DNA of 64,000 nt from an uncultured Nitrospiraceae bacterium (GCA_963727775.1 CAVSHB010000002.1:239428-303427), one strand, 5' to 3'. Numbered from the stretch's first letter, positions 25,289-47,447 are shown. The notes: a model not told the origin generated them from the sequence alone. Program-made: numbers and translations.

Positions 25289-25356
25289 CGGTTGTACAGC
25301 ACAGAATTATTACATTTCTTAAAGGTGCGGCTTTCAGGAAGGAAGCTTGCGCATGG
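25289..25356 (+). repeat. 65-bp module-spacer repeat, copy R1 (+ orientation)
   Basis: GGTTGTACAGCACAGAATTATTACATTTC..GGCTTTCAGGAAGGAAGCTTGCGCATGG. Confidence 0.8.
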
Positions 25357-25402
25357 GCTCTCCTTGCCCCATGTCAACGGGTACCCCCTCGTCACTCTTT
25401 AT

Positions 25403-27036
25403 CCTAAAAAAAGCAGTTAGAGATCATGCCACACCAGTTTGAGGGAGCAATTTCCCTGAATTTATGTTCAAAGGGCCGATGATTTTTCTAAAAGCATGCA
25501 TTGCTACAATCCTCATCCGCTCAGCGATATTCAACTGCTCCGCAGTGGTCCTAATATCCCCGAGGAACAGTGATAGTCGTAACAATGCTCCCCGCACCTT
25601 TTCAGCCTTTGCATGAGGACTGGTAATAGTCAGAAAAGTCTGTCCCCCATGTTTTGTCTGTTTCGCAACTGCGTGTAACAGCAACGGTCTGCTCGTTATT
25701 GCCTCATGATGTTTATTTGGATTGGCCAGGCGCACAAACAGCGACCACCAGTTATATACAAGAGCTACCATGCGACTAATCATGCGGCATCGCTTCAAAT
25801 CCTTTGTCGTATATCCGCCCCAGCCCCACTGATTCTTTAACTCGTCAAAGATATTTTCACTGTCTGCACGATCCCGGTAATGCTGTGCAATACTTGATAC
25901 CTCATCAGAAAGAGAAGTCACCAGCACCGTGTACTCATACTTAGCCACTCCCCCTTGTGTCTCGATGAAACTCATCTCCATTTGATCTTTCCCTTTTTTC
26001 TGCAAAAGAATATCCCCAGGTATAGGTCGGCGCAGCACGATCACCCGGCGACTACGGCTCCACCCAAATAACTTCAGCTCTGACTCCATTCCATAGTATC
26101 CGGCACCGGCTTTTACCCATTCTTCCATCTCAAACATTCTCTCGATCAATCTTTTTACATTCTTCGTAATCCTCAGCTTTGTGACATAATGTATACTACG
26201 TTTTTCTGCCTCTGATAACACTCCCTCTACTCCAAACGCTATATCTCCACGGATGAAGGCCGGCCGATTATCCCGGGGAATACTCTCTACCAATTCCCAT
26301 AATCCAGCCGTGCTGTGACTCGATGCGGTCTCATTGCCCGCCTTCACTTCTACCTTTAACGCTAATCGTGTGTTTGCCATAAAATAACTGTGGTAACTGT
26401 GTGAGGGCCGCCCAGGTTTCTTAGGATTATATCCCACAACTGCCCCCTCTTGTTTGCCATACAGACACTTTACCGTCGTGTCCGTATCAAGTATCCAGGA
26501 GGGGCCTGATACTGCCGATAATACAGGCATCGTGCAGCGTGCAAGCTCTGATTCAAGCCATTGTATCCCAGTCCCTTCTTCTATCTGCAATAAGGCCCGA
26601 CGCGCCGCATCTTCACTGATTATCTTATCCATCCCCAATAACTCGGGATTCACTCCATCACTTCGTATCGCTGCGATATGTGCATATCGCTTATGTCCCG
26701 CAAGTATCGAAAGCATGAGAGTGCCTAACACGTTTCTCTTCTTCGGCGCATTCGGGCTGCTATAGGAGAGGGGACACTCTTTTACAAAGGAATCAAACAA
26801 CCCGCTGACTTTCAGAAATTCTATGAAAAATGGCAACTGCCCCAATGGGGTAACAGCTGCATCAGGGTCCCATTCTACGTGTATCTTCCCCGCATATGTA
26901 TCAATTCCTACTGAGTTGCTCCTTGCTATCGCACGCCGTTTTGCCTCACCCATTAGGTGAACCCTCCTGCCACTCTTTTTCCGTTTATTATTGCATGCTT
27001 CGCCCCTTATGTGTATCCCGTACCGCTTTTTTTAGG
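25403..27036 (-). mobile_element. IS1380-family insertion sequence (copy C), ~1634 bp
   Basis: IRs CCTAAAAAAAGCAGT (25403) and ACCGCTTTTTTTAGG (ends 27036) bracket the transposase. Confidence 0.65.
25424..26953 (-). CDS. IS1380/IS4-type DDE transposase
   Basis: 509 aa; GYNPKKPGRPSHSYH...YRDRADSENIFDELKNQWGWGGY motifs. Confidence 0.8.
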   Translation of the reverse strand: MGEAKRRAIARSNSVGIDTYAGKIHVEWDPDAAVTPLGQLPFFIEFLKVSGLFDSFVKECPLSYSSPNAPKKRNVLGTLMLSILAGHKRYAHIAAIRSDGVNPELLGMDKIISEDAARRALLQIEEGTGIQWLESELARCTMPVLSAVSGPSWILDTDTTVKCLYGKQEGAVVGYNPKKPGRPSHSYHSYFMANTRLALKVEVKAGNETASSHSTAGLWELVESIPRDNRPAFIRGDIAFGVEGVLSEAEKRSIHYVTKLRITKNVKRLIERMFEMEEWVKAGAGYYGMESELKLFGWSRSRRVIVLRRPIPGDILLQKKGKDQMEMSFIETQGGVAKYEYTVLVTSLSDEVSSIAQHYRDRADSENIFDELKNQWGWGGYTTKDLKRCRMISRMVALVYNWWSLFVRLANPNKHHEAITSRPLLLHAVAKQTKHGGQTFLTITSPHAKAEKVRGALLRLSLFLGDIRTTAEQLNIAERMRIVAMHAFRKIIGPLNINSGKLLPQTGVA

Positions 27037-27085
27037 TTTATAGACCTTACTCCATATTCCGGTTGGTATCACATACATACGGCAC

Positions 27086-27640
27086 TCATTGCCACCGGAT
27101 AATGCGGTCTTCGTAGTCTATCTGGAAGCGGGAGCTTTTGAGCATATCATTGCCGAGCAGTCCGTCGTAACTTCCGACCGCGCTAACCGGCACTTGGACA
27201 CTACTAACCCGCCTCGGGCCGATGCTGATCGAATCGAGAACCACCAAACCAGCCAAGCTGAACCCTCCGACCCCTTGTATCAGCGAAAGGTTGGCGTCTT
27301 TAGGGTTTATTTCCAGCTGCCTGGCAATATTCGGACTGATGAGCGATGTAGCAGCGCCAGTGTCAAACACGAACTGACCTTTGACCTCACGCCCCTTGTA
27401 GCTGACTGTGACCGGAACCACGATATGATTGTCTACAAGTTTGAAAGATGTCTCGGTCAGACTGTCACTTTCCTGAGCGTCGCGGGACACTATTTGAGCC
27501 TTATCTCCCGGATCGTCGGTAAATCTGACGTTGCCGTTATCGTCAATGTACTTATATATATCGGCGGCAGACGGTGAGTAGAAAATGAGAATAACAACCG
27601 CAACGGTAAGATAGCCTACCTGTGAATGCGCAAGTTTCAT
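27086..27640 (-). CDS. secreted retropepsin-like (clan AA) aspartic protease with DUF4124-like N-terminal region
   Basis: Signal/TM segment; YKYIDDNGNVRFTDDP; catalytic FVFDTGAATSLIS. Confidence 0.6.
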   Translation of the reverse strand: MKLAHSQVGYLTVAVVILIFYSPSAADIYKYIDDNGNVRFTDDPGDKAQIVSRDAQESDSLTETSFKLVDNHIVVPVTVSYKGREVKGQFVFDTGAATSLISPNIARQLEINPKDANLSLIQGVGGFSLAGLVVLDSISIGPRRVSSVQVPVSAVGSYDGLLGNDMLKSSRFQIDYEDRIIRWQ

Positions 27641-27700
27641 AATGTGTTCTACTCCCTATCGAGTCCTGTGTTGTCGCGAAAATCTTTCCATTGATAATTT

Positions 27701-27766
27701 CCGAGTGTACTATGCAGAATTATATCAAGTTTCAAACATGTTTGCTTCAGGAAGAAGGGTTGCACT
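27701..27766 (+). repeat. 65-bp module-spacer repeat, copy R2
   Basis: GAGTGTACTATGCAGAATTATATCAAGTTTC..GCTTCAGGAAGAAGGGTTGC. Confidence 0.8.
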
Positions 27767-27787
27767 TGTTCTTGTAATTATGCATGT

Positions 27788-28297
27788 TTAATAATTCGAA
27801 ACACCCCATCCCCAAAGTATTGCCGGTATTTCAACTGCAAGGAGACCTCCAATGAAGGAGAACGCATTTGCAACAAAGCTGTATGCCATGCTTCTCAAAA
27901 GTGATGGCGCAGCTTCAGGTTGTCGTGTAAGTCTTGGTGATCGAAGAAGGTAAAAAACCGCTATCCCCTCGGCTAAGGTGACTGCGATTTCGCCGACAAT
28001 TCCCACAATCGTCACGCCAACGAAGTTTTGCATTGCAACTATTGCAGTCATAAGAAGGATAAATGTGACGGTTGTAATCACTGTCCACACCCCTACAAAT
28101 CGCCAGAAGTAGGGATTTGTTCCCTTTCCCAATCGCGCCACAATGACCCCTTCCATCGGCAGTAGGATGGGTACAACAACAAGTGGAACCGGGTTCAAGA
28201 TTATTGGATCAGCGAAAGCGATGGACGGGCAAAGCATACTTGCCACCAGCAATATAAAAAGATCCCTAAGGTTGTTTTTTGATTCGTGATTATTCAT
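27788..28297 (-). CDS. hypothetical polytopic membrane protein
   Basis: Five to six hydrophobic helices. Confidence 0.45.
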   Translation of the reverse strand: MNNHESKNNLRDLFILLVASMLCPSIAFADPIILNPVPLVVVPILLPMEGVIVARLGKGTNPYFWRFVGVWTVITTVTFILLMTAIVAMQNFVGVTIVGIVGEIAVTLAEGIAVFYLLRSPRLTRQPEAAPSLLRSMAYSFVANAFSFIGGLLAVEIPAILWGWGVSNY

Positions 28298-28606
28298 CCT
28301 TCCATCTACGGCTACAAAGTCGTCCTTTCGGTTATAACCTGTACAATTATATCATTCTCATGTGGTCTCAGCTTCGGGAGGCAGTCTTACCCGTGGTAAC
28401 TTTCGAGAATAACCGCATGTCTGTATTCTTCTTTCGAGCGAAAAGTTTGCTGAGAGCTCATCTGGCAGCAAATTGGAAAATGCCTACAGAGTATAATAGT
28501 TTGGTAAAGACGATGACGACATTACATATTTTTTTATCCGTCCTTCTGGCTACTGACCCTTGGTCAGTCAGTTCCATTCGGGTTTCGAAAACATAAGACG
28601 AATGTA

Positions 28607-29452
28607 TTGATTATGACAAGAAGACTTAAGTTTCTACTAATCATCATGATATTGTTGGGCATATATATTGGCCGGAGCTATTGGCCATTTAAAGAGCAAA
28701 TAAAGATAGAGACGGCTCATTACACTATCTATTCTACAGCGACGCAGCAGCAAACTATTCTTATCGGAGAAGCAAGTGAAAGCTTGTACGCTGCCTATAC
28801 CGATTTTTTCAAAGATATGATAGATGCAAAAGAGCACAAGGGACGGCTAAGGATGAGGCTTTATAAGGATAGAGATGAGTTTAAGGCACACAACTGGAGT
28901 GCTCCCTGGGCAGAAGCATTCTATCACAACCCGTATTGTTATGCCTACTATCCCGAAAGTGAGGCCAATCCATATCACTGGATGATACACGAGGGAACCC
29001 ATCAATTAAACCGGGAAGTTGCCCATTTTAAGGTGCCCGAATGGATTGATGAAGGCTTAGCAACATATTTCGGTTCAAGCAAAATAAGAAATGGTAGATT
29101 GCAACCCGGTGAAATCGATGTGAACACGTATCCTATATGGATACTACAAACTATTTCCTTGACGGGCAACCTTCAGAAGGATATCAACAATAACAAGATA
29201 ATTCCTCTTCGCGCCCTAATTACAGGGACAGGAGGGCCTAATATCATCAGGCATTTTAATCTATACTACGTCCATTATTGGAGCCTGACACACTTTTTAT
29301 TTCACTATACGAACGGAAAATATTCTGATGGCTATAAAAGTTTGATCCGCGCAGGCGGCACATTGGAAGAATTTGAGAAGAGAATCGGATCGGTAGATCG
29401 GATACAGAACGAATGGTATGAGTACTTGCGACAGAGCGTGTCAGAAGTGTAG
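28607..29452 (+). CDS. putative zinc metallopeptidase (HExxH; DUF1570-like)
   Basis: N-terminal TM anchor; WMIHEGTHQLNRE (HExxH). Confidence 0.5.
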   Translation: MIMTRRLKFLLIIMILLGIYIGRSYWPFKEQIKIETAHYTIYSTATQQQTILIGEASESLYAAYTDFFKDMIDAKEHKGRLRMRLYKDRDEFKAHNWSAPWAEAFYHNPYCYAYYPESEANPYHWMIHEGTHQLNREVAHFKVPEWIDEGLATYFGSSKIRNGRLQPGEIDVNTYPIWILQTISLTGNLQKDINNNKIIPLRALITGTGGPNIIRHFNLYYVHYWSLTHFLFHYTNGKYSDGYKSLIRAGGTLEEFEKRIGSVDRIQNEWYEYLRQSVSEV

Positions 29453-29543
29453 AAAAAATGAAAGAGCCCTAACAGTTAAGTCATGCCAAATATTAACTTA
29501 AGGTTGACATCAGTATAGAAGCGCGAGAGTCTTGTCTGTTCCC

Positions 29544-29610
29544 ACTTGTACTGAACATGATTATATCAGGTTTCGGTGCCGTTGACTTCAACAAGGAAGG
29601 ATTATTGCCT
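29544..29610 (+). repeat. 65-bp module-spacer repeat, copy R3 (between convergent genes)
   Basis: CTTGTACTGAACATGATTATATCAGGTTTC..ACAAGGAAGGATTATTGCC. Confidence 0.75.
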
Positions 29611-29703
29611 ATCAGGACTCTCTGGAATACTACGTTTCTTTCACCCCGTAAGGCGCATAGCTTTTTTATCAAAGAGACCTGATAACCTTTAAAAACAGAA
29701 AGA

Positions 29704-30687
29704 TCAGAAAACATTCACTTTGAATGTCACTACTTTTGCAGGCGGCACATCCTTCTCCCAAGGTCTTATATATCTAAAGTTGATTGCTGTTTTACCCTTC
29801 CCGGTAGCCTCGAAGAGCCAAACTTCTTTACCTCCTGCACCGATAAGCCCGGTTTGCGATTTCCTATATTTGTTGCGCACTAACCTGATAATTGTGCTCT
29901 CTTTTGGGCTGATCATCTCCCAGTGATATCCTGTGGTGACGTTTGAATCAAGAACAAGCGTAAAATGTTGACCAGGGGCTACTTCAATCTCCAAGCTGGG
30001 ATTGCTGAACTCAAGTATATTCGATGCGACATTAATCACTTTTGCTCCGACAAAAGTACCGGAACTTTCGAAATCAAAGGCGATCAGTACAGTACCGAGA
30101 AGTTCACAAGCGTGACAGCCATTCTGGAGGCGGTAGGCAGCAACAAACCTCTTTCCCTTGTTTAAAAGATCTTCGCCCTTCACACAAGGGGCGTCATATC
30201 TGTCACCAGGCCAGAGATTCACTTTAGGAAAATTGTGGGCTATTTGTTCATACAGTTTGTGCTTCGTTAGGTCCACATTCTTTAAAATGTCATTATCGTC
30301 GATGTCGATGACCGACGGGTTTCCGTTTACGAGATAACATCCGTAGTTCTCATTCGCCCTAAATGGATAAAAAACTTGAGCGATATCCACCGCTCCGTCC
30401 CTTTGGAAGGCTGTTATATAGGCCGTATTTCCTATGTGTTTGGTAAAGACGATAGCCTCGCATGGGGCCCCTGAATCTTTCATCACGGTGACGAAACAAG
30501 CCCCAAAGTCCTTCACCGCTTCCATTGAACAGCGCTCAAGCACTTGTTGCCTAAAGGAACTACCGGGATTCCAGACTACTTCCGGACCTATCTGCTGATT
30601 TTCGGCTGAGGCGACACCAGTCAGGAAGCATATTATTATAAATATCTGGGCAATCAAACTCTTTATAGGCTCCCCTTTTTCTGACAT
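29704..30687 (-). CDS. hypothetical secreted protein
   Basis: Signal peptide; 327 aa; no family recognised. Confidence 0.5.
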   Translation of the reverse strand: MSEKGEPIKSLIAQIFIIICFLTGVASAENQQIGPEVVWNPGSSFRQQVLERCSMEAVKDFGACFVTVMKDSGAPCEAIVFTKHIGNTAYITAFQRDGAVDIAQVFYPFRANENYGCYLVNGNPSVIDIDDNDILKNVDLTKHKLYEQIAHNFPKVNLWPGDRYDAPCVKGEDLLNKGKRFVAAYRLQNGCHACELLGTVLIAFDFESSGTFVGAKVINVASNILEFSNPSLEIEVAPGQHFTLVLDSNVTTGYHWEMISPKESTIIRLVRNKYRKSQTGLIGAGGKEVWLFEATGKGKTAINFRYIRPWEKDVPPAKVVTFKVNVF

Positions 30688-30774
30688 CGCTTTAAGAATC
30701 TAAACCTCCCCCAAAAGACACTTCAAAACTCATTTCTCATTTTTTAAATCCAGCAAGACATTTCACCCATTCCA

Positions 30775-30840
30775 GTTGAACTGCGCACAATCATAGCACC
30801 TTTGAATGGTGTTACCTACAGGAAGGAAGCTTGCGCATAT
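30775..30840 (+). repeat. 65-bp module-spacer repeat, copy R4
   Basis: GTTGAACTGCGCACAATCATAGCACC..CCTACAGGAAGGAAGCTTGCGCATAT. Confidence 0.75.
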
Positions 30841-30989
30841 ACCTTCATCTTTTTTCACAATGCGTCTTTCGCCCCGTAATAAAAAGGGTATTTTTACGAG
30901 CGGATTCCCCGCTGGAACACCTCGGTTAGATGTAGTCATCATCGCCCAATGTCAGGGCTGACCCCATTCCCCTGTTACTTACAACAAGC

Positions 30990-33011: not shown

Positions 33012-33085
33012 GTAACCTCCATTTTTATTGGTTTCCTTTAGCTTTGTTGCTTATCATTAATTTATCATGATTCATATTTAATTCC

Positions 33086-33146
33086 GGTTGTACTGAGCAT
33101 AATTATATCAGGTTTCCCTACAGTGGGTTTCAGGAAGAAGCAAAGA
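33086..33146 (+). repeat. 65-bp module-spacer repeat, copy R5
   Basis: GGTTGTACTGAGCATAATTATATCAGGTTTC..GGTTTCAGGAAGAAGC. Confidence 0.8.
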
Positions 33147-33151
33147 ATCTA

Positions 33152-33334
33152 TTATTTGAGCCCGATCTTTTTCCAAAACATAAGTCCAGGGCAAATTCCT
33201 GTTATCCCTGCAAGGGTAAATAAGCCAACTAGAATATAAAGGAACCAATGAACCTTATCAAAACCTGTTAACCATATCCCTATAAAAATCAAGAAAGCGA
33301 CTGTTATAAATTGTGCTCTCAGAGCTGAAGACAT
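33152..33334 (-). CDS. DUF2892-type small membrane protein (YgaP-like, GxCP motif)
   Basis: 60 aa; two TM helices; GICPG motif. Confidence 0.5.
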   Translation of the reverse strand: MSSALRAQFITVAFLIFIGIWLTGFDKVHWFLYILVGLFTLAGITGICPGLMFWKKIGLK

Positions 33335-33359
33335 AGTAAGCCTCCTTTGTTATTTTCCT

Positions 33360-33406
33360 TTTGTACTCAAAACAATTATATCAGGTCTTCGAGTAGTGGA
33401 CTACAG
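33360..33406 (+). repeat. 65-bp repeat copy R6, left half (split by IS110-family insertion)
   Basis: TTGTACTCAAAACAATTATATCAGGTCTTC..GGACTACAG ends exactly at the IS junction. Confidence 0.7.
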
Positions 33407-33971
33407 CTTGCTATATTGTAGTTAATGATGAGATCGATATATCTTCCAGGTAAGAATTGTTTATCCGGCAAAGGAAAGAAGGAGGAGATATTTATGAAAG
33501 GGTTACGGACGAAAAGAGTAAACATGATAAAGGAAGGGGCATTGATAGTAGCGATAGACATTGGTATGGCAAGTAACCATGGGTGCTGTGTGGCAGCAGA
33601 CGGGAGGAGCACCAAGACATTCAAGTTTGATAATACAAGAGAAGGACTTGATAGATTGTGGAACATGGTACTTGCGAGCAAAACCAGATTTCAATGCAAT
33701 GAGGTCATTATAGGATATGAGTCAACCGGACCTTATGGAGAGCCGTTGGTTCACTATCTCAAGCAGAAACCAGCAACGATCGTACAAGTAAACCCACTGC
33801 ACACGAAGAGGATGAGAGAGATCAATGACAACTCTCCATTAAAGACTGATCGTAAGGATCCCCGGGTAATCGCGGATGTCATACGGATAGGGCACGCCTT
33901 AAGCGTCGTGGTCCCAGAAGGTGCTGCCGCCTATTTGAGAAGAATAAATAATGCACGGGAGAGACATATTA

Positions 33972-35592
33972 ACCCGAAAAATGCGTTTGCTATAGGCATA
34001 CCTATAGAGTCAAGCCTATCAAGGCATTGGCTGATTTGTCGATATAAAAGCTAATACTGATGCTGTTTCTTGTTCCACCTCCTGAAAATTATGTTCTTTT
34101 TATCTAAATGCAGTGCAATTACCAAAACTGGGGGGAAAGTATTGTCCCACGCGGTTAAAGAGGTAGCGCAGTTTTGATCGTACTTTCTGCGTAAAGACAG
34201 AAATCCGCAATACAGGTTTCCTTCCATCCCATCCTAATTGGGCTGGAAGGACAAGATACTTGTACCGTAAGGTTTTCAAACGTTCTGTCTTTTCTTTTTG
34301 ACCGAGTATCTGATGCCTGAACAGGACAAACAGATTGTAGATGAATACCCGAATAAGCATAGCCGCCTCCGTTGAGTAGAAATACTTCATCGAGAACCCG
34401 CCGAGTGCAAAATCCTCTTTCAGTTCCTTGATGGTATTCTCATCGTTCGCCCTATGCCTGCATTGCTTCCATACCTCATATGTAGAATCATGTGAATTGG
34501 TTATCCATACGCTATAACGATAATGCCCTGTATCAAACTCATCTCCGAAAAGAGACAACTCTTTTCCCATCGCGTGCGGTCTCTTCTTGACATCCTGGCG
34601 CACTGCAATAAACCTCCTGTCGATTATCCACTCTACATGCTGGAAGAAGAACTCAGTGATCCATATCCCTTCTTCTACCTGTGCCCAGTTTTGTTGTGCG
34701 TAGATTATCCTCTGCAGCGGACGATATAGGCGAGCAGCTATGATATATACTAATTCTCTCTTCTCAAGCAGTTCGATGAACTCCCTAAGATAAAATCCAC
34801 TGTCTGCAATAATGCCCTTGATATCGATATGACCGTTGATCCTCTGCCATGTGGATTCAAAAAATCCAATAATGTTGTTCCATGACATCACGTTGCCGGG
34901 GCGGTTCCAAAGATTTATCACATACTTGTTTCTGTTAAGAAATGCCAGAAGCGGGCTGTGGCTACCACGGCCCTTCTTCTTCGGGTTATATCCCCTCTTG
35001 ACTCCCTCCTGTTTTCCGTATCGCTCAAGGACTGTAGAATCGAACGTCAACCAGTCCTCTTTGAGCTCTTTCCAGGGGATCAATCTCTTCAAGTATCCCC
35101 ATAATCCCTCCGACATCTCTTCCACTTCCTTCAGTTTTCTGATCTTCCTGAAAAGCCTGCCCAATGTCGTCGAGGCGATAGGAAGCCTCTTCACTGCAAA
35201 AAGATCGGTGAAAATCTCCTGCCAACCAAGATAAAGTAGATGAGAAAACCTGCTGCCTCCCGCATAGATCAGAAGGATGTATGCCAATACCTTGCTGTAT
35301 ATCCCCATTCCATTGGGTGAACTCTCATGGATCGGAATCACCTCTTGCAAAATTCCTCTCAATTTGATCTTTTCAAAAAATGCAGCCAATAAACTGAATC
35401 CCCCATATGCCGTCATCTTCTTCTCCGTAAATCCAATCCTTACTTTATTTATTTCGATCTTTGTGCTACATTTTGACTGCATATTTCTATTCTCCTTTCG
35501 TTTAGAGTTGATGGTCGGGTAAACCTATTGATTCTAATACGAAAGGAGAATTTCTTCGGGGATATTATTTTAGGTCAACTGCACTTTTTGGG
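33972..35592 (-). mobile_element. IS1380-family insertion sequence (copy B), 1621 bp, TSD TTAA
   Basis: TTAA at 33968-33971 and 35593-35596. IRs CCCGAAAAATGCG / CACTTTTTGGG. Confidence 0.7.
34100..35482 (-). CDS. IS1380/IS4-type DDE transposase
   Basis: 460 aa; GYNPKKKGRGSHSP...HRANDENTIKELKEDF motifs. Confidence 0.8.
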   Translation of the reverse strand: MQSKCSTKIEINKVRIGFTEKKMTAYGGFSLLAAFFEKIKLRGILQEVIPIHESSPNGMGIYSKVLAYILLIYAGGSRFSHLLYLGWQEIFTDLFAVKRLPIASTTLGRLFRKIRKLKEVEEMSEGLWGYLKRLIPWKELKEDWLTFDSTVLERYGKQEGVKRGYNPKKKGRGSHSPLLAFLNRNKYVINLWNRPGNVMSWNNIIGFFESTWQRINGHIDIKGIIADSGFYLREFIELLEKRELVYIIAARLYRPLQRIIYAQQNWAQVEEGIWITEFFFQHVEWIIDRRFIAVRQDVKKRPHAMGKELSLFGDEFDTGHYRYSVWITNSHDSTYEVWKQCRHRANDENTIKELKEDFALGGFSMKYFYSTEAAMLIRVFIYNLFVLFRHQILGQKEKTERLKTLRYKYLVLPAQLGWDGRKPVLRISVFTQKVRSKLRYLFNRVGQYFPPSFGNCTAFR

Positions 35593-36383
35593 TTAAAGAG
35601 CGGACCGCTCTTCTCAACCAATTACGGCAGTTTGTGTTTCTCATATTCCCAGAATTTGGCCGAATAATAAAGACGATATTCTGCAAAACATCCTTACATA
35701 TACTCAAGAAATATACGACACCGGCAAAGGTATGCAGCGTAAATATAGAGAAACTTGGAGGGGAAATGAGGAGATGTAGCATGGGCAAATTCGGGGTAGA
35801 ACATGCTACGGCGCTGATCAATTATGCAAAGACCACCATCGGTATTCAAGAAGGGTTGGACGGATTAGTTATGGATATACAGCACGCCCTCGTCCAGCTG
35901 GAGATGGTCGATAGTCTCATAGCGGAACTGGAGCACGAGATGGAGACAACCCTACAGCGCATACCCTACAGTCGCAAACTCCTGTCAATCAAAGGGCTCG
36001 GGATAGTAACGGTAGCAGGGCTTATTGGTGAGATAGGCGACTTTACAAAGTTTAAAACGCAGTCTGAGATAGCGAAGCTTGCCGGTCTTGACCTGTACGA
36101 AGTAAGCTCCGGGAAAAGACAAGGACAGAGGAGGATATCAAAGAGGGGCAGAAGCCTGTTACGGAAAATACTGTATTATGCCGCCATGCAGACAATCAGA
36201 AAGAACGGCATTATGCATGAGTACTACCAAAGACTGATAGGCCGGGGCATGAAAAGTATCATGGCGCTCGTTGCAGTATCCAGGAAACTATTGAGGATCA
36301 TATTTGCAATTGTAAGGGATGACACTGAATTCATAATGAATCATGAAGCTCAGAGAAAGGAGGAGATGAGAAAGGCCGCTTAG

Positions 36384-36636
36384 AGTTATAATTCACGTAG
36401 GCGGGGAGATTATCGTTTTCTTCCTTTAAGGCGCAATGCGACCTTCGACTACAGAATACATAACTCCCCGTCGACATTCTAACTCCAATTAAGCAAGGTA
36501 AAAGCGTTCAATACGACTTTCAAATTACAAGGGTTGGGTAGGATGTCACATACAAGATGGGGGATAACCGTCTACGAGAATAGATATTTCTATCTAAGTC
36601 CACATATAAAAATATATCTTGACTGGAATAAACAAG
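36384..36636 (+). ncRNA. candidate IS110-family bridge RNA / seekRNA (3' structured non-coding region of element A)
   Basis: Conserved with element B: GGCGGGGAGATTA...CGACCTTC[variable]TAACTCCCCG...TTAAGCAAGGT. The variable segment GACTACAG equals the left target flank GGACTACAG. Confidence 0.55.
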
Positions 36637-36650
36637 GAAGGAAGCTTGCC
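36637..36650 (+). repeat. 65-bp repeat copy R6, right half (GAAGGAAGCTTGCC)
   Basis: Directly follows the IS110 element A right end. Confidence 0.65.
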
Positions 36651-36661
36651 TATGATTCTGC

Positions 36662-37111: not shown

Positions 37112-37172
37112 AACAATTCCATTCGTACTCAACAGGATTATAGCAAATTCCAACATGCAAGATTTCAGGAAG
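37112..37172 (+). repeat. 65-bp module-spacer repeat, copy R7
   Basis: TTCGTACTCAACAGGATTATAGCAAATTCC..GATTTCAGGAAGGATTGTTGCC. Confidence 0.75.
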
Positions 37173-37360
37173 GATTGTTGCCTCTCCGCTTTGAGTCCGG
37201 TATCATACGTCTTTCGCCACGGAAGAAAAATGGATCTTTTGGTTCTGCCACCTATAATTACGCGGAGGCGACAAAACGTAAAAAGTATTGATTAAAAGTA
37301 AACGGGTAACATGAGCGTCACCCGGAGCGGGCTTTTTTCGCGATTGGGTATACGTACTTG

Positions 37361-37732: not shown

Positions 37733-37770
37733 TTGACCTTCATCTCCTGTCCATAATATTTATTGATTAC

Positions 37771-37838
37771 CGGTTATACTAAGCACAATTATATCAGGTT
37801 TCAATCTTGCCGGTTTCAGGAAGGAAGCTTGCGCATGG
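37771..37838 (+). repeat. 65-bp module-spacer repeat, copy R8 (near-consensus)
   Basis: CGGTTATACTAAGCACAATTATATCAGGTTTC..CGGTTTCAGGAAGGAAGCTTGCGCATGG. Confidence 0.85.
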
Positions 37839-37866
37839 TATAAATAAGAGCGACCAGATTTCTTTA

Positions 37867-38274
37867 TTAATGGAGACCGTTCTCATTGAAATGTTTTGAA
37901 TACTTCTTGTCAGTTCCAAGGATGTGACTTTGAAGCCAGTCTTTGAGAAAATTCAATATTTCCAACGTGAGAACGAAACCTGATTTTTCTAGCCGCTCTT
38001 TTAAGTCAAGGGCTTTCACTGCGAATTTATCGTGTTCAATCTTATGAGATGGATAACTCGCAAAGTTGAACTTCCGCATATACTTTTCTTCTGTTTCAAA
38101 ATGAGTTTTTGCATAATTAACCATCTTGTTAATTATTTCTTTCTGTGCCTCACGGCCCTTATCTGAAAGCAATGCATCATGTAAAGTATTAACCATTTCA
38201 ACCAACGTTTTATGTTGATTATCAATTTCTTTCACATTAACACTGAAACTATCCGACCACTGGAAAATAGCCAT
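37867..38274 (-). CDS. bacteriohemerythrin
   Basis: [25 protein letters not shown]...H..H..E..H iron ligands. Confidence 0.75.
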
Positions 38275-38437
38275 GTATACGTTCCTCCTTTTTTATTTTA
38301 TCTATCTAACATTATGCCAACTTGGTATTTCTCGATTTCTTGAAATAATATAGCATAGTAAGGAATTACTTGAAAAAGAAAATTACAGAGAAATTTATAA
38401 TAAACATCAAGATGTCCGATGAGAGTTCCTATTAATT

Positions 38438-38502
38438 TGCAAGAGTACTTAACAGCCTCAGCTCGATACTCCCCGCGTTTAGTACAGGAAGGATGCTTGC
38501 CT
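38438..38502 (+). repeat. 65-bp module-spacer repeat, divergent copy R9
   Basis: GAGTACTTAACAGCC...GTTTAGTACAGGAAGGATGCTTGCC. Confidence 0.55.
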
Positions 38503-40573: not shown

Positions 40574-40648
40574 ATACCATTCCTCCTTGGTATTTGATAA
40601 TTAACGGCTCCGCTCCATTATAGCAGATTCTTTTCCGCTAAAGATTTA

Positions 40649-40712
40649 CGGTTGTACTAAACATCATTATGTTAGAGTTCCATGGTGTTTAGAAGAGGAA
40701 GAATGGTTGCCT
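40649..40712 (+). repeat. 65-bp module-spacer repeat, copy R10
   Basis: CGGTTGTACTAAACATCATTATGTTAGAGTTCC..GTTTAGAAGAGGAAGAATGGTTGCC. Confidence 0.7.
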
Positions 40713-40773
40713 CACGCGCCTATGCATCCTTTGTCCTGGAATAAGCGTACCGTTCTATAAATGTCCTGTGAAC

Positions 40774-41226: not shown

Positions 41227-41248
41227 TGCTCTCTCCTTTACTCCTTTC

Positions 41249-41304
41249 CGATTGTACTACGCACAATTATATCAGGTTTGAATGTTGCGGGTTTCAGGAA
41301 GCAA
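41249..41304 (+). repeat. 65-bp module-spacer repeat, copy R11
   Basis: GATTGTACTACGCACAATTATATCAGGTTTG..GGGTTTCAGGAAGCAATGG. Confidence 0.8.
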
Positions 41305-41330
41305 TGGGGAATTTAGAAAATCAGCGGACC

Positions 41331-41699
41331 TCAAATTCTATCTCTCAATAGAAAAATACTTCCAACGATTAACATGGGAGCACTTATCCTCAAAAAAAAT
41401 TGGAATAATGATTGCAAATCTACAGACGTATAGAATGAAAAAGCAATCAGGGATACAATACTACCTGTGACGAGCCATGATCCACCAATTTTATTTCGGA
41501 AGATTGACAGAATCACCGCAGGCAATGTTGAAATAGGCCCACTTAATATAATAAGCCATGATATCCGGGGTTCGTCTTGCCTGAAAACAAAAATTGCTCT
41601 TGTTCCTAAGAAGAAATGCATAACACCAATGCCGATGCCTACTATAATAATGCCTACATATAATCCTTTTCTCTTAATATCCTTATGATGATTATCCAT
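41331..41699 (-). CDS. hypothetical polytopic membrane protein (start 5 bp from repeat R12)
   Basis: The longest ORF extends into the repeat. The internal Met at 41699 (MDNHHKD...) is the likely start. Confidence 0.45.
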   Translation of the reverse strand: MDNHHKDIKRKGLYVGIIIVGIGIGVMHFFLGTRAIFVFRQDEPRISWLIILSGPISTLPAVILSIFRNKIGGSWLVTGSIVSLIAFSFYTSVDLQSLFQFFLRISAPMLIVGSIFLLRDRI

Positions 41700-41703
41700 A
41701 ATA

Positions 41704-41756
41704 GTCAACACAATTATATCAGGTCTCAAATACGTTTAGTTCAGGAAGGATTAAGC
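41704..41756 (+). repeat. 65-bp module-spacer repeat, copy R12
   Basis: TCAACACAATTATATCAGGTCTC..GTTTAGTTCAGGAAGGATTAAGC. Confidence 0.75.
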
Positions 41757-41826
41757 GGAGATCTTACCGATATTCAGACTCATTTTATACCACACAAAAA
41801 TATGAGGTGAAGGGGATGATTCTTAA

Positions 41827-42186: not shown

Positions 42187-42395
42187 TTCGCCCCTCGCTT
42201 TTATTCCTCGAAAAAGTTTGTAAGAGAAAATCCGATCCCCCTGAGACATTCTTCCCTTCACCTCTCATCCAGACCCATACTGAGAGTTAAAGATTGTGTG
42301 GTTAGCTGTATGCTACTCTCTGTCTGGATTCTTGTCAAGATATCGTATATTTGGGTGGGATAATCTTTTACACATATTTGCTTATCGAATAGCAG

Positions 42396-42452
42396 TTAAA
42401 GTCCGCACAATTATAGCCGGTCTTGAAGTTGCGTGGTACAGGAAGGAGCTGA
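42396..42452 (+). repeat. 65-bp module-spacer repeat, copy R13
   Basis: GTCCGCACAATTATAGCCGGTCTTG..GTGGTACAGGAAGGAGCTG. Confidence 0.75.
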
Positions 42453-42602
42453 GATTTTAAAAACATCATTTTTCGCGACCTTCACCCCATACTAAGCATA
42501 GCCTTTTTGTTCCCTGCAGTAGTCCATGATGAATAATAATGAATATCTTCGAAACAATCAGTGATTACTTGAGTCTTTGAAGATGCGTCTTTCATTGTTC
42601 TT

Positions 42603-44313
42603 CTAGGAGTCTGTCGGACTTGAATTGCTGTTTTTGACAGCGGTTGGAATCCGAGAGAGTCGATTGTAGTTATTTTTCATGATTTGATCGTCTGTCATCG
42701 GTTCTTTCCTGCCGGTGTTTTGTTGGATACATTATGCCATCGCCATTTTCAGGCGCCTACCTGGCTGTTCCTCAATGCATGCAGCCTTTTGATGTTCCAT
42801 GCAATGCAGATCATATCCCACTCGCCATTGACTGCAGTAAAACCACGCAACAGGAATCGGTCAAATCCCATAGCTGCCTTGATTACCCCAAACGCCGGCT
42901 CCACAGTACTCTTGCGTATCGCATAAATTGCCTTACCGGCAACTGTCTTCAACCGATGTTTCATTCTTGTCACTGCATCAGCATCAACCGGCAATGGAGG
43001 CGGTTCGACGAATCGCTCCCATAAAGGCTGATTATGACTCTGCCGATCTACTGCTATATATGGCTCTATTCCTTTGCTCTCACATTCTTGCACATTTGCT
43101 TCGCTGTAATACCCGCTGTCGGCTATTATAGTTTTTACTTTGCCAAGTTGTTCGGGCAGATATGTAAGCGCTTCAAGCGCTGGTTTCATCTGCTGTTTGT
43201 CATTGGATTGTTGTGTTACATGCGTTGCGACAATAAGCATTGTTTCTGTATCCACGGCTGCTTGAGCATTATAAGCCTGCTTGAATCCTCCACCCGATGC
43301 CGGCATTATGCGAGATTCTTCATCGGTCAGATTGACCTGATCTTTGTCAGTTGGCCCGGCTGCAGGCGGCTTGGGTCCTTTGCCTCGGGGTTTCTTGCCG
43401 CTCTGCTTTTGTTTGGCTACACGCTCTGCCTGTTTCTTTTCACTGTCGGCTTGTTCCATTGCATGCCGCTCTGCCGCACGGCGCTCTATCTCAGCTTTTG
43501 CTTCAGCTATCATTTTCAGCCGCTTCTCTCGCCGCTCCAGCTCTTCCGGGATGTTCATGCCGTCAGGAATGTCAGCTTTGTCAGCAGCCTCAGCTTTCTT
43601 CATCAGTTCCGCCACTTCCACTTTCAACTTATTCTCTATTTTGCATGCATGCCCGTAGCTCAACGCCTTGTGCTTTGAGGCATTGGCTTTCATTTTGGTC
43701 CCATCCAAGCTGACCGTGCCTAACTTCAATACCCCGGTTTCTGCTGCTATCATTAGTATCTGCACAAACAGTTCTTTCAGCTTAGGCAAAAACCGACGTC
43801 GAAAGGTTGCTATTGTGTCATGGTCAGGGTGACTGTTGGCTGCCACATACCGGAATGCTACAGAGTCGTACGTGCTACGCTCTAATTGCCTGCTCGAAAA
43901 GACTCCCGTCGCATATCCGTAAAATAATAATGCCACCAGCATCTCAGGGCTGTATGCCTCACTGCCTCGTCCTGCATAATCATTTTTCAACCGGTCAAGA
44001 TTAAGCTGATCCACTATCTCTACGACAAATCTCGCCAAGTGACCCTCGGGCAACCATTCCTGCACCGACGGCGGAAATAAATATATCGTCTCTCTGTCAC
44101 ATTGTTTGAACATTATGCTGATCTCCTGTTGTTCATTCTTATGCCGCTTGTCTATTATGCCATAAGGAACGCCCATGCAGGTCTGTCGGACTTAGATAAT
44201 TACAGGCCGAAAAGATTTCTGCTGCCCAGTTTGCAATAAAGGTTCTTAAGAGACTGCCGTGTCCTTCAAGAAGTAAACTTTTCAGAAATGTTGAAAGTCC
44301 GACAGACTCCTAG
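42603..44313 (-). mobile_element. IS1182/IS5-like insertion sequence, copy 2 (identical to copy 1)
   Basis: Same 1711 bp including the 19-bp TIRs. Confidence 0.85.
42749..44176 (-). CDS. DDE transposase, IS1182 family
   Basis: Identical 475-aa product. Confidence 0.85.
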   Translation of the reverse strand: MGVPYGIIDKRHKNEQQEISIMFKQCDRETIYLFPPSVQEWLPEGHLARFVVEIVDQLNLDRLKNDYAGRGSEAYSPEMLVALLFYGYATGVFSSRQLERSTYDSVAFRYVAANSHPDHDTIATFRRRFLPKLKELFVQILMIAAETGVLKLGTVSLDGTKMKANASKHKALSYGHACKIENKLKVEVAELMKKAEAADKADIPDGMNIPEELERREKRLKMIAEAKAEIERRAAERHAMEQADSEKKQAERVAKQKQSGKKPRGKGPKPPAAGPTDKDQVNLTDEESRIMPASGGGFKQAYNAQAAVDTETMLIVATHVTQQSNDKQQMKPALEALTYLPEQLGKVKTIIADSGYYSEANVQECESKGIEPYIAVDRQSHNQPLWERFVEPPPLPVDADAVTRMKHRLKTVAGKAIYAIRKSTVEPAFGVIKAAMGFDRFLLRGFTAVNGEWDMICIAWNIKRLHALRNSQVGA

Positions 44314-44429
44314 TGTAAATGGCAGAGATTATTTATGGTCAATTTGTCCTATGTCAAGGGCTGACCCCATGGATGTCCTTTTTGCGCCTTTACTCTTTCA
44401 GCACCTCTACAAACGGGCGTCATTAATCA

Positions 44430-45326
44430 TTAATAGGAAGATATCAGGGGGCAATTTTGGGGTAGCACCAGCTTAATTGTACCCGGCAGCACCTCAAAGC
44501 GAATTTTGTTTGTTTTAATAGGCTCACCATCCAGATTGATCGGCATCGCAACATCAGACTCCCATTCAGCCCAAGGCACCCTATAACGCTTGATATAATC
44601 TCCGCTGACTTCAGACTCCGTCAACTCCCTTATCACTTGCCCCAGATCTTTTGGTGGAAAGCGGAGTAATCCTACAATATCCAGCAACCCGTCATCAATA
44701 AAAGCGCTGGGAGCTAACTGCTGGCCACCACCGGCCTGCTTACCATTACACACAGCGCCGACGATAACATCATTTTGCAAAGACCCCTGGGGCATACGCA
44801 GTTCGCCCTTATAAGGCACAAATTTCAGCGCTTGTACCATAGCGGAAAGAGTATAAGCGCCTCCACCGAGAAAATTCTTTAACGCCACTGGCGTGTTTGC
44901 TGTCACCTGAGCTCCAAAGCCGCCACTGGCCACGTTGATAAAGTGGAATTCGTTGGCCCTTACACCATCAACGGCACATGACTGACCGGATTGAGCCAGT
45001 TCCAGCGCAGCCAATGGATCCGAAGGGATGGAACATGCTGTGGCAAAATCGTTGGCAGTACCAAGCGGCAGTATTGCCAATTCCGGTCGCTCAGCGGCTG
45101 GCAGTTGTAACATGGCATCAACAACCTCATTTACAGTGCCATCTCCACCGCCTGCCACCAGGCGAAGACATCCATCAGCGCAAGCTTCTCGAACCAGCCG
45201 TTTAACATCACCTGCTTCCCAGGTGACCCTGACTTCAACGCCGCCGTTTTCTCTTGCGCTGTAAATCGCTGTCCGAACAGGTTTAAGTGCTGCTTTTTTA
45301 CCGTTTAAAATGATTCGAATATCCAT
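44430..45326 (-). CDS. diacylglycerol kinase catalytic-domain family lipid kinase (YegS/DgkA-like)
   Basis: GGDGT motif; DAGK_cat fold signature. Confidence 0.7.
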   Translation of the reverse strand: MDIRIILNGKKAALKPVRTAIYSARENGGVEVRVTWEAGDVKRLVREACADGCLRLVAGGGDGTVNEVVDAMLQLPAAERPELAILPLGTANDFATACSIPSDPLAALELAQSGQSCAVDGVRANEFHFINVASGGFGAQVTANTPVALKNFLGGGAYTLSAMVQALKFVPYKGELRMPQGSLQNDVIVGAVCNGKQAGGGQQLAPSAFIDDGLLDIVGLLRFPPKDLGQVIRELTESEVSGDYIKRYRVPWAEWESDVAMPINLDGEPIKTNKIRFEVLPGTIKLVLPQNCPLISSY

Positions 45327-45404
45327 TCAGAACCAATGGAATTAGCAATATAATTAAAACTATTTTCTTCATTGTTTATTCAATAAAAAAAGTTAACGAT
45401 TTAT

Positions 45405-45462
45405 GGTTCTACTCAACACAATTATATCAAGGTCGGAAAGTGTTGCCTACAGGAAGAAACGA
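45405..45462 (+). repeat. 65-bp module-spacer repeat, copy R14
   Basis: GTTCTACTCAACACAATTATATCAAGGTCGG..GCCTACAGGAAGAAACG. Confidence 0.75.
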
Positions 45463-45469
45463 TGTTCCT

Positions 45470-45955
45470 TTATGCTCTGTTATCAAGGACTTCTATCTCG
45501 GTCTTAAAAAGTAGGAAAAGCGAACCAATATCGTCTTCGGTCAGACCAATACCGTCTTCTTCGGCGTCTTCCATTAGAGCTTCAAGGACATATTTCATTA
45601 CATATGGCTGCTTAGAAACTTGGACGCCCGCAATTCTATCGATGAATTTGTCATGGGTTCCTTCAATGCTTTCTATTAAACGTATATTTTCATCATACCT
45701 TGCCATAATCTCCTTGGAAGAGATTTTTGGGAGCTTACCGCTTGAGTCAAGAAACATCTTATAAACAACAAAGGCGACATATATGGCAAGCTCTTTCACT
45801 TCCTGCTGAAGATCATCTGTGTATGCCATCAGAAAAGCTAAGAGAGCTGGCTGGTTCTTACCCATGGCAATCATCTCTTTATTTGCCCTGTCTGCAGTGA
45901 AGGCGGCAACTTGTTGCCAGGTTTTCTCTACGAATACCTCAGATAAGGGGTCCAT
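45470..45955 (-). CDS. hypothetical protein
   Basis: 161 aa acidic ORF. Confidence 0.45.
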   Translation of the reverse strand: MDPLSEVFVEKTWQQVAAFTADRANKEMIAMGKNQPALLAFLMAYTDDLQQEVKELAIYVAFVVYKMFLDSSGKLPKISSKEIMARYDENIRLIESIEGTHDKFIDRIAGVQVSKQPYVMKYVLEALMEDAEEDGIGLTEDDIGSLFLLFKTEIEVLDNRA

Positions 45956-46009
45956 TTAAATAACTGTCTCCTTTCTAAATCCTTTACTAGAATCGTACAT
46001 CATGTCTGA

Positions 46010-46237
46010 TTATCCACCCGTAATATTTCTTATAAGCAATATTAAGCCTCCGATGATGAAGGCCAGAGCAAACGGAATGAGCAGACACCCTGGAGTTGGT
46101 TTGTCGATATATTTGCCACGACCGACATAATAACCAGTAAATGATCCGATTTCGTTTCTGAAGACGAGCATGAGTATCCCAACAACAATGATCAACAGAT
46201 CGATAAAAAAAGAATTGCGCGGCACAGTTGTCATCAT
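46010..46237 (-). CDS. hypothetical small membrane protein
   Basis: Two TM helices. Confidence 0.4.
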   Translation of the reverse strand: MMTTVPRNSFFIDLLIIVVGILMLVFRNEIGSFTGYYVGRGKYIDKPTPGCLLIPFALAFIIGGLILLIRNITGG

Positions 46238-46270
46238 AGGAGTAAAAAGATAGAAACTATATTAAATGAA

Positions 46271-46543
46271 TTATTTTACCGCGCCCTTTAAAGCTTTCCC
46301 GGCTGTAAATTTCGGTGCTTTCCGGGCTGCAATCTTAATTATTGCGCCTGTTTGAGGATTACGCCCCTTCCGTGCCTTCCTCTTTGAAATCGAGAAAGTC
46401 CCGAAACCTACAAGAGCTACTTTGTTCCCTTTCTTCAGTGTCTTGGTAACTGCATCAACAAATGAGTTAAGAGACTTTTCCGCTACTGCCTTTGAAGCAC
46501 CTGAGTCTTTTGCCATTTTTTCTACAAGTTCTGCTTTTGTCAT
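46271..46543 (-). CDS. hup: HU-family DNA-binding protein
   Basis: [11 protein letters not shown]...[21 protein letters not shown]...[12 protein letters not shown]. Confidence 0.85.
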
Positions 46544-46643
46544 AGATACCCTCCATTAATATTAATTGTAAAAAAGTATACCATGCCTATATTGAAAAAT
46601 AGCTATCATGCCATCTGGAAAATTATACATTAATCTTTTTTGT

Positions 46644-47225
46644 TTACTTCGGTATCGCTGAGTATGGCTGAGCTCGGCGCGCCCATTCACTCTGAGGATA
46701 TTTTTCCGAAAGTGTGTCGTATGCCCGGCGAAGCGCACTTGCTTCGTGAGTCTTTTTATATTCAGCTACGCCAAGGAAGAAGATTGATTCGGGAGCCACG
46801 CCTGCATTGGGATGCTCTTCAATAACCTTTTTAAACCACTTTGACGCCTCCTCATGTCGTTCCTTCTCGAAAAAGACCATGCCTTTACTGAATTTGAGCT
46901 GTGCGAGAAAATCATCTGTAGGAATGTATCCGACAAGCTTTCTATGTACCCTGCCCCCAGCGTCCTGAATGAGGAACGTAGGGGTCCAGGCGATATTGAA
47001 TTGTTTCATAAGTTCCGTTCGTTCCTTCCAGAAACATTGGCTCTTTAGTGGGACGTACTCCTCCTTAATGAATGTTTGGACCTTTTCATCTGAATACGGA
47101 CCCGCATTCATTGCAGCGCAGCCAGCTCACCCGTCGAACCAGAAGTCATGGAAAACCGGCTTGCCTTCTTTCTTTGCCTTTTCTAAGGCAGTCTCAAAAT
47201 CCCTTTCCCATTTTATCTCGGCCAT
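46644..47225 (-). CDS. thioredoxin-fold (DUF255-like) protein with in-frame UGA: candidate selenoprotein (UxxC redox motif)
   Basis: ATG at 47225 (RBS gaggagg). ...[21 protein letters not shown]... aligns to the GKPVFLxIGYSxCHWCHVM thioredoxin-like motif, with Sec in place of the first Cys. A hairpin lies about 10 nt downstream of the UGA. Confidence 0.5.
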
Positions 47226-47391
47226 GTCAATCCTCCTATATTAATTCACCAAAACCTGTTTAAATTGTATCATGGGAAAAGAGCGAAATCATCTTTTGTG
47301 TTCAAGCACATCGAAAAGATATTAAGTGCCACCGGTCAAATTCAGCAGCCGCCAATAAGCGCGCTGACCTATTAACTGTACGGCGACAATG

Positions 47392-47447
47392 ATCCTTCCT
47401 GAACTAAACATTTCTGAAACCTGATATAGTGGTGCGTAGTTCAACTA
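47392..47447 (-). repeat. 65-bp module-spacer repeat, copy R15 (inverted orientation, right boundary of array)
   Basis: Reverse complement reads GTTGAACTACGCACCACTATATCAGGTTTCAGAAATGTTTAGTTCAGGAAGGATC. Confidence 0.75.

Follow-up and report, generated by a model that had tools for sequence, protein, structure and literature searches.

The repeat array and its module

The 64,000-nucleotide stretch from an uncultured Nitrospiraceae bacterium analyzed here (GCA_963727775.1, CAVSHB010000002.1:239428-303427; hereafter the window) contains a 22-kb array of genes separated by a repeat of 65 bp. A profile built from the window repeats and run by nhmmer over the 64 kb recovered 14 strong copies and one weak copy (R9), all within positions 25271-47464, and the same copy-derived profile found no comparable copy in the remaining 42 kb. 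All are direct copies except the inverted R15. Nearly every intervening gene is on the minus strand; the genes have unrelated functions, are interspersed with insertion sequence (IS) elements, and encode, among others, an aspartyl protease, a chagasin-type inhibitor, an SPFH protein, CcbP, hemerythrin, a transglutaminase-like protein, a TPR protein, a diacylglycerol (DAG)-kinase-like protein, HU, and a thioredoxin-like protein. The repeat corresponds to a module of about 58 bp, CTTCCTGwA-N5-C-N7-AAACcTGaTATAATtGTGCnnAGTAcAA..GGwAAT (consensus of the window copies on the gene strand, GCAAnnnTCCTTCCTGAAnnCAACAnCnTTGAAACCTGATATAATTGTGTTnAGTACAACnGGAAAT), with a free spacer between boxes that hardly vary. 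The window copies share 62-83% nucleotide identity with the reference copy. All copies and the associated features are listed in Table 1.

On the gene strand and at the aligned position, the exact extended -10 motif TGnTATAAT was present in 9 of 15 copies (R2, R3, R5, R6, R7, R8, R11, R12, and R14), and R1, R4, and R15 carried TG with a one-mismatch hexamer (TGTAATAAT, TGCTATGAT, and TGATATAGT, respectively), which brings the copies with TG and at most one mismatch in total to 12 of 15. R13 (GGCTATAAT) retains TATAAT without TG, the aligned 9-mer of R10 (TAACATAAT) also lacks TG, and R9 (CGAGCTGAG) is degenerate. The statement of the initial annotation that every copy has an extended -10 motif was thus overstated, although its count of 13 of 15 was fair. 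The window contained 16 occurrences of exact TGNTATAAT, compared with 2.8 ± 1.8 in shuffled sequences, and a count of 16 was reached in 0 of 100 shuffles. From the last T of the hexamer, the start codon follows after 13-191 nt in the direct copies and after 243 nt in R15, which, as had been noted, aims at the plus-strand gene starting at 47674. The closeness of R12 to its gene was likewise confirmed; there the coding sequence takes the place of the 3' boxes of the module, and an mRNA driven from R12 may be near-leaderless. R3 does lie between convergent genes and points into the 3' end of gene 28607-29452, with no downstream gene. The name higB, given earlier to the gene below the IS-split copy R6, did not hold: this 60-aa gene (33152-33334) matches only a YgaP-like membrane Pfam family, and weakly. 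A copy of this open reading frame (ORF) with its module is found on metagenome contig L186, 88% identical in DNA.

Table 1. Module copies and associated features in the window (distances for R1 to R15 are those between the hexamer's last T and the start codon)
Feature	Position	Strand	-10 element	Downstream gene	Remarks
R1	25284..25341	-	25306-25311 (TGTAATAAT)	ATG 25114, 191 nt	Small genes 24872-25114 and 24615-24872 behind it
R2	27697..27754	-	27719-27724 (TGATATAAT)	ATG 27640, 78 nt; aspartyl-protease-like	
Degenerate 16th copy	28328..28398	-	TGATATAAT at 28346-28354	27788-28297, ~50 nt	E=0.29
R3	29538..29595	-	29560-29565 (TGATATAAT)		Box variant CTTCCTTGTTG; upstream extension module
R4	30768..30825	-	30790-30795 (TGCTATGAT)	ATG 30687, 102 nt; chagasin-family inhibitor	
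R5	33080..33137	-	33102-33107 (TGATATAAT)	ATG 33011, 90 nt; SPFH/Band 7	
R6	33353..33406	-	33375-33380 (TGATATAAT)	ATG 33334, 40 nt; 60-aa membrane protein	Cut at CTTC/CTG by IS110
R6, detached upstream piece	36643..36660	-			GAAGGAAGCTTGCC on + strand
IS110-family insertion	33407..36642	+			In R6 at CTTC-CT-G; CT on both sides (gene strand)
IS110 DEDD transposase, split	33425-34054 and 35634-36383				Split by nested IS4-like DDE transposase, 34100-35482
R7	37115..37172	-	37137-37142 (TGCTATAAT)	ATG 37030, 106 nt; CcbP calcium-binding	Extension
R8	37766..37823	-	37788-37793 (TGATATAAT)	GTG 37732, 55 nt; 123-aa protein	
R9, degenerate	38435..38492	-	Lost (CGAGCTGAG)	37867-38274; hemerythrin	E=1.6e-4; CTTCCTG and AGTAC kept
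R10	40644..40701	-	CATAAT without TG, 40666-40671 (TAACATAAT)		
R10, second motif	40617-40625		TGCTATAAT	ATG 40573, 43 nt; transglutaminase-like	~40 nt past first -10
R11	41244..41301	-	41266-41271 (TGATATAAT)	ATG 41226, 39 nt; TPR protein	
R12	41691..41748	-	41713-41718 (TGATATAAT)	ATG 41699, 13 nt	
R13	42388..42445	-	42410-42415 (GGCTATAAT, no TG)	GTG 42261, 148 nt	Extension
R14	45399..45456	-	45421-45426 (TGATATAAT)	ATG 45326, 94 nt; DAG-kinase/YegS-like	
R15, inverted	47395..47452	+	47425-47430 (TGATATAGT)	ATG 47674, 243 nt; TIG-domain protein	
TGnTATAAT, ordinary gene	19352-19360	-		PAS histidine kinase	
TGnTATAAT, ordinary gene	53302-53310	-		1013-aa M1-peptidase/ChaN protein	
TGnTATAAT, ordinary gene	53687-53695	+		HI0933-like flavoprotein	
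Recombinase-pair mobile element	19688..24592	+			Separate from promoter system; abuts the array's last cassette

Conservation of the module across Thermodesulfovibrionales

A scan of genome collections with an exact pattern containing the -10 motif (one genome per species) returned at least 114 matching stretches, and nhmmer recognized the full module at 77 of the 114 loci among the matches listed. Nearly all of the full-module loci among these matches are labelled Thermodesulfovibrionales, Thermodesulfovibrionia, Nitrospirota, Ca. Sulfobium, or Dissulfurispiraceae, and the other pattern matches listed are chance matches in other phyla, as expected. On the complete 3.6-Mb chromosome OY970295.1, the matches listed fall at 0.26, 0.46, 1.83, 2.19, 2.92, and 3.34 Mb. 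More than 200 module copies were retrieved in all from Thermodesulfovibrionales/Nitrospirota metagenome-assembled genomes (MAGs) and metagenomes, in which co-oriented local runs are common (three copies within 1 kb at locus L071; pairs 300-1500 bp apart at many loci). Full modules were also seen on short contigs from MAGs labelled Acidobacteriota, Bacteroidales, Alphaproteobacteria, or Bathyarchaeota (L020, L040, L041, L058, and L113); these are likely mis-binned Nitrospirota contigs and less likely cases of horizontal transfer.

To avoid the circularity of a pattern that contains the -10 motif, metagenomes were scanned with the flanks only (CTTCCTGNA-N5-C-N22-GTGCNNAGTANAA), which gave 110 unique hits. 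The exact TGnTATAAT was present in 82 of these flank-selected copies, and TG with at most one mismatch in 91; several of the remaining hits look like chance pattern matches. Frequencies were.93 and.92 for the T and G, and.90,.96,.88,.90,.94, and.93 for the successive hexamer positions T, A, T, A, A, and T. These high frequencies at positions that the scan did not select indicate selection on TG and on each base of the hexamer. Within the hexamer, A(-11) was the most conserved position and T(-7) was among the most conserved, as is expected of a sigma-70-type -10 element from E. coli hexamer statistics. A T at -2 of the CTTCCTG box, AAAC right before TG, the T after the hexamer, and GGwAAT (one A at 94%) were also conserved. 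The spacer from +9 to +21 varies freely between copies, and some subfamilies share it across genomes.

Coupling of the module to the downstream gene

The module typically stands 40-150 nt ahead of highly diverse genes and is often part of a run of small genes that share one orientation. Of 122 copies, 79 were followed within 100 nt by the start of an ORF of at least 50 aa; the corresponding count for the other side, read on the other strand, was 28. Shine-Dalgarno (SD)-like motifs preceded half of the downstream ORFs. In a crude gene call that counted downstream neighbors within 300 nt, 75 downstream neighbors were co-oriented with the module and 8 opposed (n=83); upstream neighbors were co-oriented in 58 cases and divergent in 20 (n=78). 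The downstream bias places the constraint on the downstream gene, as predicted for a promoter and unlike an element at a 3' end or cassette end. The 83 downstream proteins matched 100 Pfam families, including cold-shock, HU, DUF1003, PilZ, and NAD-dependent DNA ligase families. Ordinary genes outside the array also have TGnTATAAT 34-60 nt before their start codons, without the other boxes of the module (Table 1). The extended -10 motif therefore appears to be the general promoter type of the host, and the module would be that core with additional boxes.

Structure and alternative functions of the module

Apparently complementary stretches are visible in the module by eye, as in an attC-like single-stranded DNA hairpin or a structured RNA. 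Average-product-corrected mutual information over 114 copies revealed no Watson-Crick covariation (maximum, 0.28 bits), and RNAalifold predicted 0 pairs on the 15 window copies, which ruled out this candidate. Rfam returned no match for the whole window at the gathering threshold; for 13 kb of the array, even E≤1 brought up no relevant match. Because conserved structure, covariation, and Rfam matches are lacking, the module is neither attC-like nor an RNA. An element acting as RNA, whether a structured 5' leader, a 3' untranslated region element, or a small RNA, would have drawn on the conservation of the first ~15 nt from the predicted start (AGUAcAA..GGwAAU) and on the half-sites TTGTGC and GTACAA, which could pair with one G-U; the conserved part nevertheless lies mostly upstream of that start, and together with the structure results this makes such a role barely conceivable.

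Other readings of the module were set aside as well. A small ORF on the opposite strand after an SD-like AGGAAGGA was rejected, its frames and stops not being conserved. The opposite strand of the box reads CAGGAAGGA-N4-TTGC, with the GG-N10-GC spacing of sigma-54 -24/-12 promoters, and this sequence is found in the window copies R1-R4, R7-R10, and R15 and in ~30% of copies elsewhere. The spacing fits sigma-54; TTGC occurs in only ~30% of copies and the remaining consensus is absent, and this reading was not adopted. The consensus sequences of CsrA, Fur/PerR, IHF, sigma-28, sigma-32, and extracytoplasmic function (ECF) sigma factors did not fit either.

About 8-10% of modules carry a conserved upstream extension of 75-140 nt, located in the window at about 29596-29700, 30826-30900, 37173-37290, and 42446-42510 and elsewhere at L025, L047, L113, L133, L142, L143, L151, L153, L180, and L242. 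It reads TTGTAGGTGG..GAGAAAAA..GGC.TGC..CTTACGGGGCGAAAGA..CCAGAGAGTCCTGAGAGGCAAGC.TCCTTCCTG on the gene strand. Some stem positions seem to covary, and the predicted hairpins are weak and inconsistent, for which reason a terminator was rejected. The GTAGGTGG box of the extension is similar to the sequences that flank insertions of the recombinase-pair element described below.

Units of module and gene probably change neighbors at the module

Copies were anchored on the first C of CTTCCTG, and the 43 pairs that share the module and at least 100 nt downstream were compared for the point at which their homology begins. It begins at -3 to +3 of CTTCCTG in 21 of the 43 pairs and at +4 to +30 in 14, mostly at +17 to +30, i.e., at or just before the TGATATAAT block; 5 pairs share sequence further upstream, and 3 represent one contig present in two collections. 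Pairs that are 94-99.7% identical have unrelated upstream flanks, such as L009/L064 (96.8% over 956 nt), L076/L095 (95.9%), L029/L205 (98.6%), and L020/L180 (99.7%). The two members of L036/L105 (99.7% identical, upstream flanks unrelated) are located 1.6 Mb from each other in a single chromosome. The converse arrangement was also observed: L064 and L044 have 375 nt of upstream sequence in common, as far as ...CTTCC, beyond which modules and genes differ, and one 140-nt upstream unit precedes three modules that differ from each other (L005, twice, and L023), with L023 sharing its module and gene with L029. The unit of L032/L094 is flanked by TTCTTCCTG on either side. We conclude from these sequence comparisons that module-plus-gene units probably change neighbors at the module, which may proceed by a site-specific, microhomology, or gene conversion route.

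A member of the IS110 family has inserted into the CTTCCTG box of R6, with CT on both sides (Table 1); a CT core is known for IS110/IS621-type elements. A second IS110-family gene lies at 61574-62836.

These breakpoints bear on whether the module could instead be a stationary regulon signature, that is, a shared promoter/operator on which a dedicated regulator or an alternative sigma factor acts, for example in a stress regulon, kept by selection at each gene and not exchanged. Such a signature would explain the box-wise conservation around a free spacer, which is typical of protein contacts, the retention of the module by orthologous genes across genomes, and the many stress-type small proteins encoded downstream (cold-shock domain, HU, hemerythrin, DUF1003, and PilZ). 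In the consensus, CCTGAwA recurs 22 bp downstream as a direct repeat overlapping the TG, and a near-palindrome, TTGTGC-N3-GTACAA, covers the predicted start; both would suit a regulator, and they suggest an additional, putative DNA-binding partner of the module. However, ~58 bp of specified sequence would not easily arise de novo again and again before unrelated genes, the "variable" spacer is common to subfamily members from different genomes, the local clustering of copies is strong, and near-identical units in different contexts break exactly at the module, including L036/L105 within a single chromosome. We therefore regard a purely stationary regulon as unlikely.

The neighboring recombinase element and the integron hypothesis

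Next to the array lies a mobile element that encodes two Xer-like tyrosine recombinases, of ~334-350 and 310 aa, in the overlapping genes A (from 19773) and B (23617-24549), respectively. The element is ~2.1 kb when uninterrupted, is bounded by 16-bp terminal inverted repeats (TIRs) (GCTATACGTAACAAAA, at 19688 and 24592), and is interrupted in gene A by an IS21 element (about 20451-23289). Recombinase B scored 114 bits on the integron integrase model TIGR02249 (cut-off, 265), which it matched in two pieces, and scored higher on Xer-like models; its identity as IntI was ruled out by the score below the cut-off. B has ~8000 homologs at E≤1e-30 in metagenomes, mainly on contigs of 2-3 kb, and the 120 best are 81-93% identical and mostly located on 1-4 kb contigs, which is typical of a multi-copy element. 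Six other loci carry the A+B pair amid unrelated genes, and their homology to the window ends at the TIRs; the 82 kb of these loci contain no strong repeat copy. Loci of the element outside the window include L116-L121 and L051. Among the matches listed, the recombinase pair occurs within 8 kb of only 1 of 114 module loci. Because the element has its own TIRs, occurs in six array-free contexts, and shows this 1/114 linkage, the array was not assigned to the recombinase pair. The insertion flanks of the element resemble GT(A/C)GGT/(A/G)TGGTG boxes.

The locus nevertheless invites comparison with an integron-like platform, in which the repeats would be recombination sites of the adjacent tyrosine recombinases and the TATAAT block their binding or crossover core. 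Like integron arrays, the array consists of co-oriented, small, unrelated accessory genes separated by repeats of ~60-65 bp beside tyrosine recombinase genes, its unit boundaries fall at a short conserved core (the CTTCCTG box), and an IS110-family element sits inside a repeat, as IS1111-type elements insert in attC sites; the right flank of the recombinase element reads ...ACTTCCT|. Unlike integrons, the array has no IntI, and its neighboring recombinases belong to an unrelated, TIR-bounded mobile element. Its repeat is tied to the downstream and not the upstream gene, standing on the 5' side with a promoter-like -10 motif, whereas the integron repeat stands at the 3' end of the cassette. Integron cassettes are mostly promoterless and attC is defined by structure rather than sequence (PMC9024848), whereas the repeat here is conserved in sequence and unstructured. 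The linkers that precede the next box are, moreover, not common to the copies of a unit. The array thus mimics an integron superficially but departs from it at each defining feature, and an integron-like platform is very unlikely.

Other features of the array and its surroundings

At the right end of the array, a thioredoxin-like/TPR gene (46644-47244) is seemingly split over two frames (ORF 46644-47111 and a start near 47226), possibly by a frameshift or as a pseudogene. Just beyond the array, DUF4258 and DUF2283 genes are adjacent (48413-48921), a pairing often annotated as toxin-antitoxin-like. An IS5/DUF772-type transposase gene (475 aa) is present in three copies (6587-8014, 42749-44176, and 59476-60903), one of them within the array, and identical nhmmer scores of their flanks suggest identical IS copies.

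Relation to described promoters and repeats

The module agrees with extended -10 sigma-70 promoters in its TG and consensus hexamer, in a dispensable -35 element, and in its position and orientation before start codons; ordinary extended -10 promoters differ in that they are not conserved from -42 to +15. To our knowledge, the CTTCCTGwA, AAAC, TGTGC, AGTAcAA, and GGwAAT boxes have no counterpart among extended -10 promoters.

The nearest described concept is that of putative mobile promoters (PMPs), which are highly similar upstream regions of 50-100 nt (at least 80% identity) found before non-homologous genes within a genome and across genera, in families of up to 93 members, and proposed to be recyclable promoters (Matus-Garcia, Nijveen & van Passel 2012, PMC3488235). 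Both PMPs and the module are upstream sequences of 50-100 nt common to non-homologous genes. PMPs are defined purely by identity of at least 80%, a threshold that falls within the 62-83% range of the window copies of the module, which have invariant boxes and a free spacer; the module differs in its order-level clade, its co-oriented arrays, and the coincidence of defined boxes with synteny breakpoints. That study makes no mention of Nitrospirota (PMC3488235). Our literature search found no relevant description of this module family, or of repeats or integrons in Thermodesulfovibrio/Nitrospirota.

Promoter-bearing dispersed repeats are known in the form of the Neisseria Correia repeat enclosed elements (CREE) and the enterobacterial repetitive intergenic consensus (ERIC) (cited in PMC3488235). 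Like the module, they are short intergenic repeats that give promoter elements to adjacent genes; they are miniature inverted-repeat transposable elements (MITEs) with TIRs and, unlike the module, have target duplications and occur in either orientation. A decayed non-autonomous element of this kind (a MITE or IS end), in which TATAAT would be incidental or the relic of an outward promoter, could explain a dispersed multi-copy family with subfamilies and an optional upstream extension in an IS-rich region. A weak 6-bp inverted match of the module ends (CTTCCTG ... CnGGAA), with 3' positions 57-94% conserved, points the same way. Against this, no real TIRs are apparent beyond that weak match, and no k-mer duplication above background, as a sign of target-site duplication, was detected in 226 copies; the orientation to the downstream gene is strict (75 to 8), and the box-wise purifying selection across an order, at every -10 position, argues for function. 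This origin is accordingly most improbable.

A probable promoter module that may double as a junction

Taken together, the selected TG and hexamer of flank-selected copies, the coupling to the downstream gene, the use of the same motif by ordinary genes, and the lack of structure argue that the module is an active promoter, to which we assign a probability of about 0.75. In the proposed mechanism, its core would be an extended -10 element of the sigma-70 type, with TG at -15/-14, TATAAT at -12 to -7, and no -35 element, and transcription would start at a conserved A ~7-8 nt past the hexamer, the purine of GTGCnnAGTA. The remaining boxes would lie upstream (CTTCCTGwA at ~-42 to -34, C at ~-28, and AAAC at -20 to -17) and downstream (TGTGC at -5 to -1, AGTAcAA at +1 to +7, and GGwAAT at ~+10 to +15), and most likely contact RNA polymerase or a DNA-binding factor; the region from -42 to -34 is where -35-independent promoters often bind activators. 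The module would thereby supply its own promoter to nearly every gene of the 22-kb accessory, IS-rich array, and it might at the same time serve as a junction for changes in gene order, with edges at the CTTCCTG box or the -10 block. The initial annotation had proposed a portable promoter-plus-site unit. Its promoter half was strongly supported by the lines of sequence and comparative evidence above, and its portable-site half gained unexpected support from units that begin at the CTTCCTG and -10 edges and from the IS110 insertion in the box. The neighboring recombinases proved not to be tied to the module. That the module is both promoter and portable junction seems to us rather probable.

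Several observations weigh against this interpretation. The conservation from ~-42 to +15 exceeds what a plain promoter needs, R3 has no gene to drive, and R9 has no -10 element. The module has no -35 hexamer, and a canonical two-hexamer -35/-10 scan called R14 alone, for which reason we treat it as a -35-less promoter. As to the junction, the 3' ends of shared units fall 10-33 nt short of the next CTTCCTG box and the linkers differ, which does not agree with a simple two-site cassette of the integron type, and a crossover anywhere inside the invariant block would be reported by BLAST at the block edge. The homologs of the R8 protein, from more distant genomes (72-76% identity), stand in unrelated contexts without the module, which is uninformative on mobility.

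A more speculative and rather doubtful extension of the model is that CTTCCTG is the site-specific recombination core of a non-integron cassette system in Thermodesulfovibrionales, the unit being promoter module plus gene. Such units would be unstructured, sequence-defined, promoter-first, and self-expressing, and their arrays would be assembled by another recombinase or by programmable IS110-type enzymes, for which the box is already a target; the family would gain in novelty if the CTTCCTG box were such a core.

If the module is an active promoter, it would provide a compact, -35-independent promoter part for a phylum without genetic tools, a sequence tag (CTTCCTG-N23-TATAAT) by which transcription units of Thermodesulfovibrionales MAGs could be annotated, and a clean natural case of promoter reuse across an order. 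The coincidence of module and breakpoint makes it testable whether genes spread among bacteria, or are exchanged between them, with a standard promoter attached, and by which mechanism this happens.

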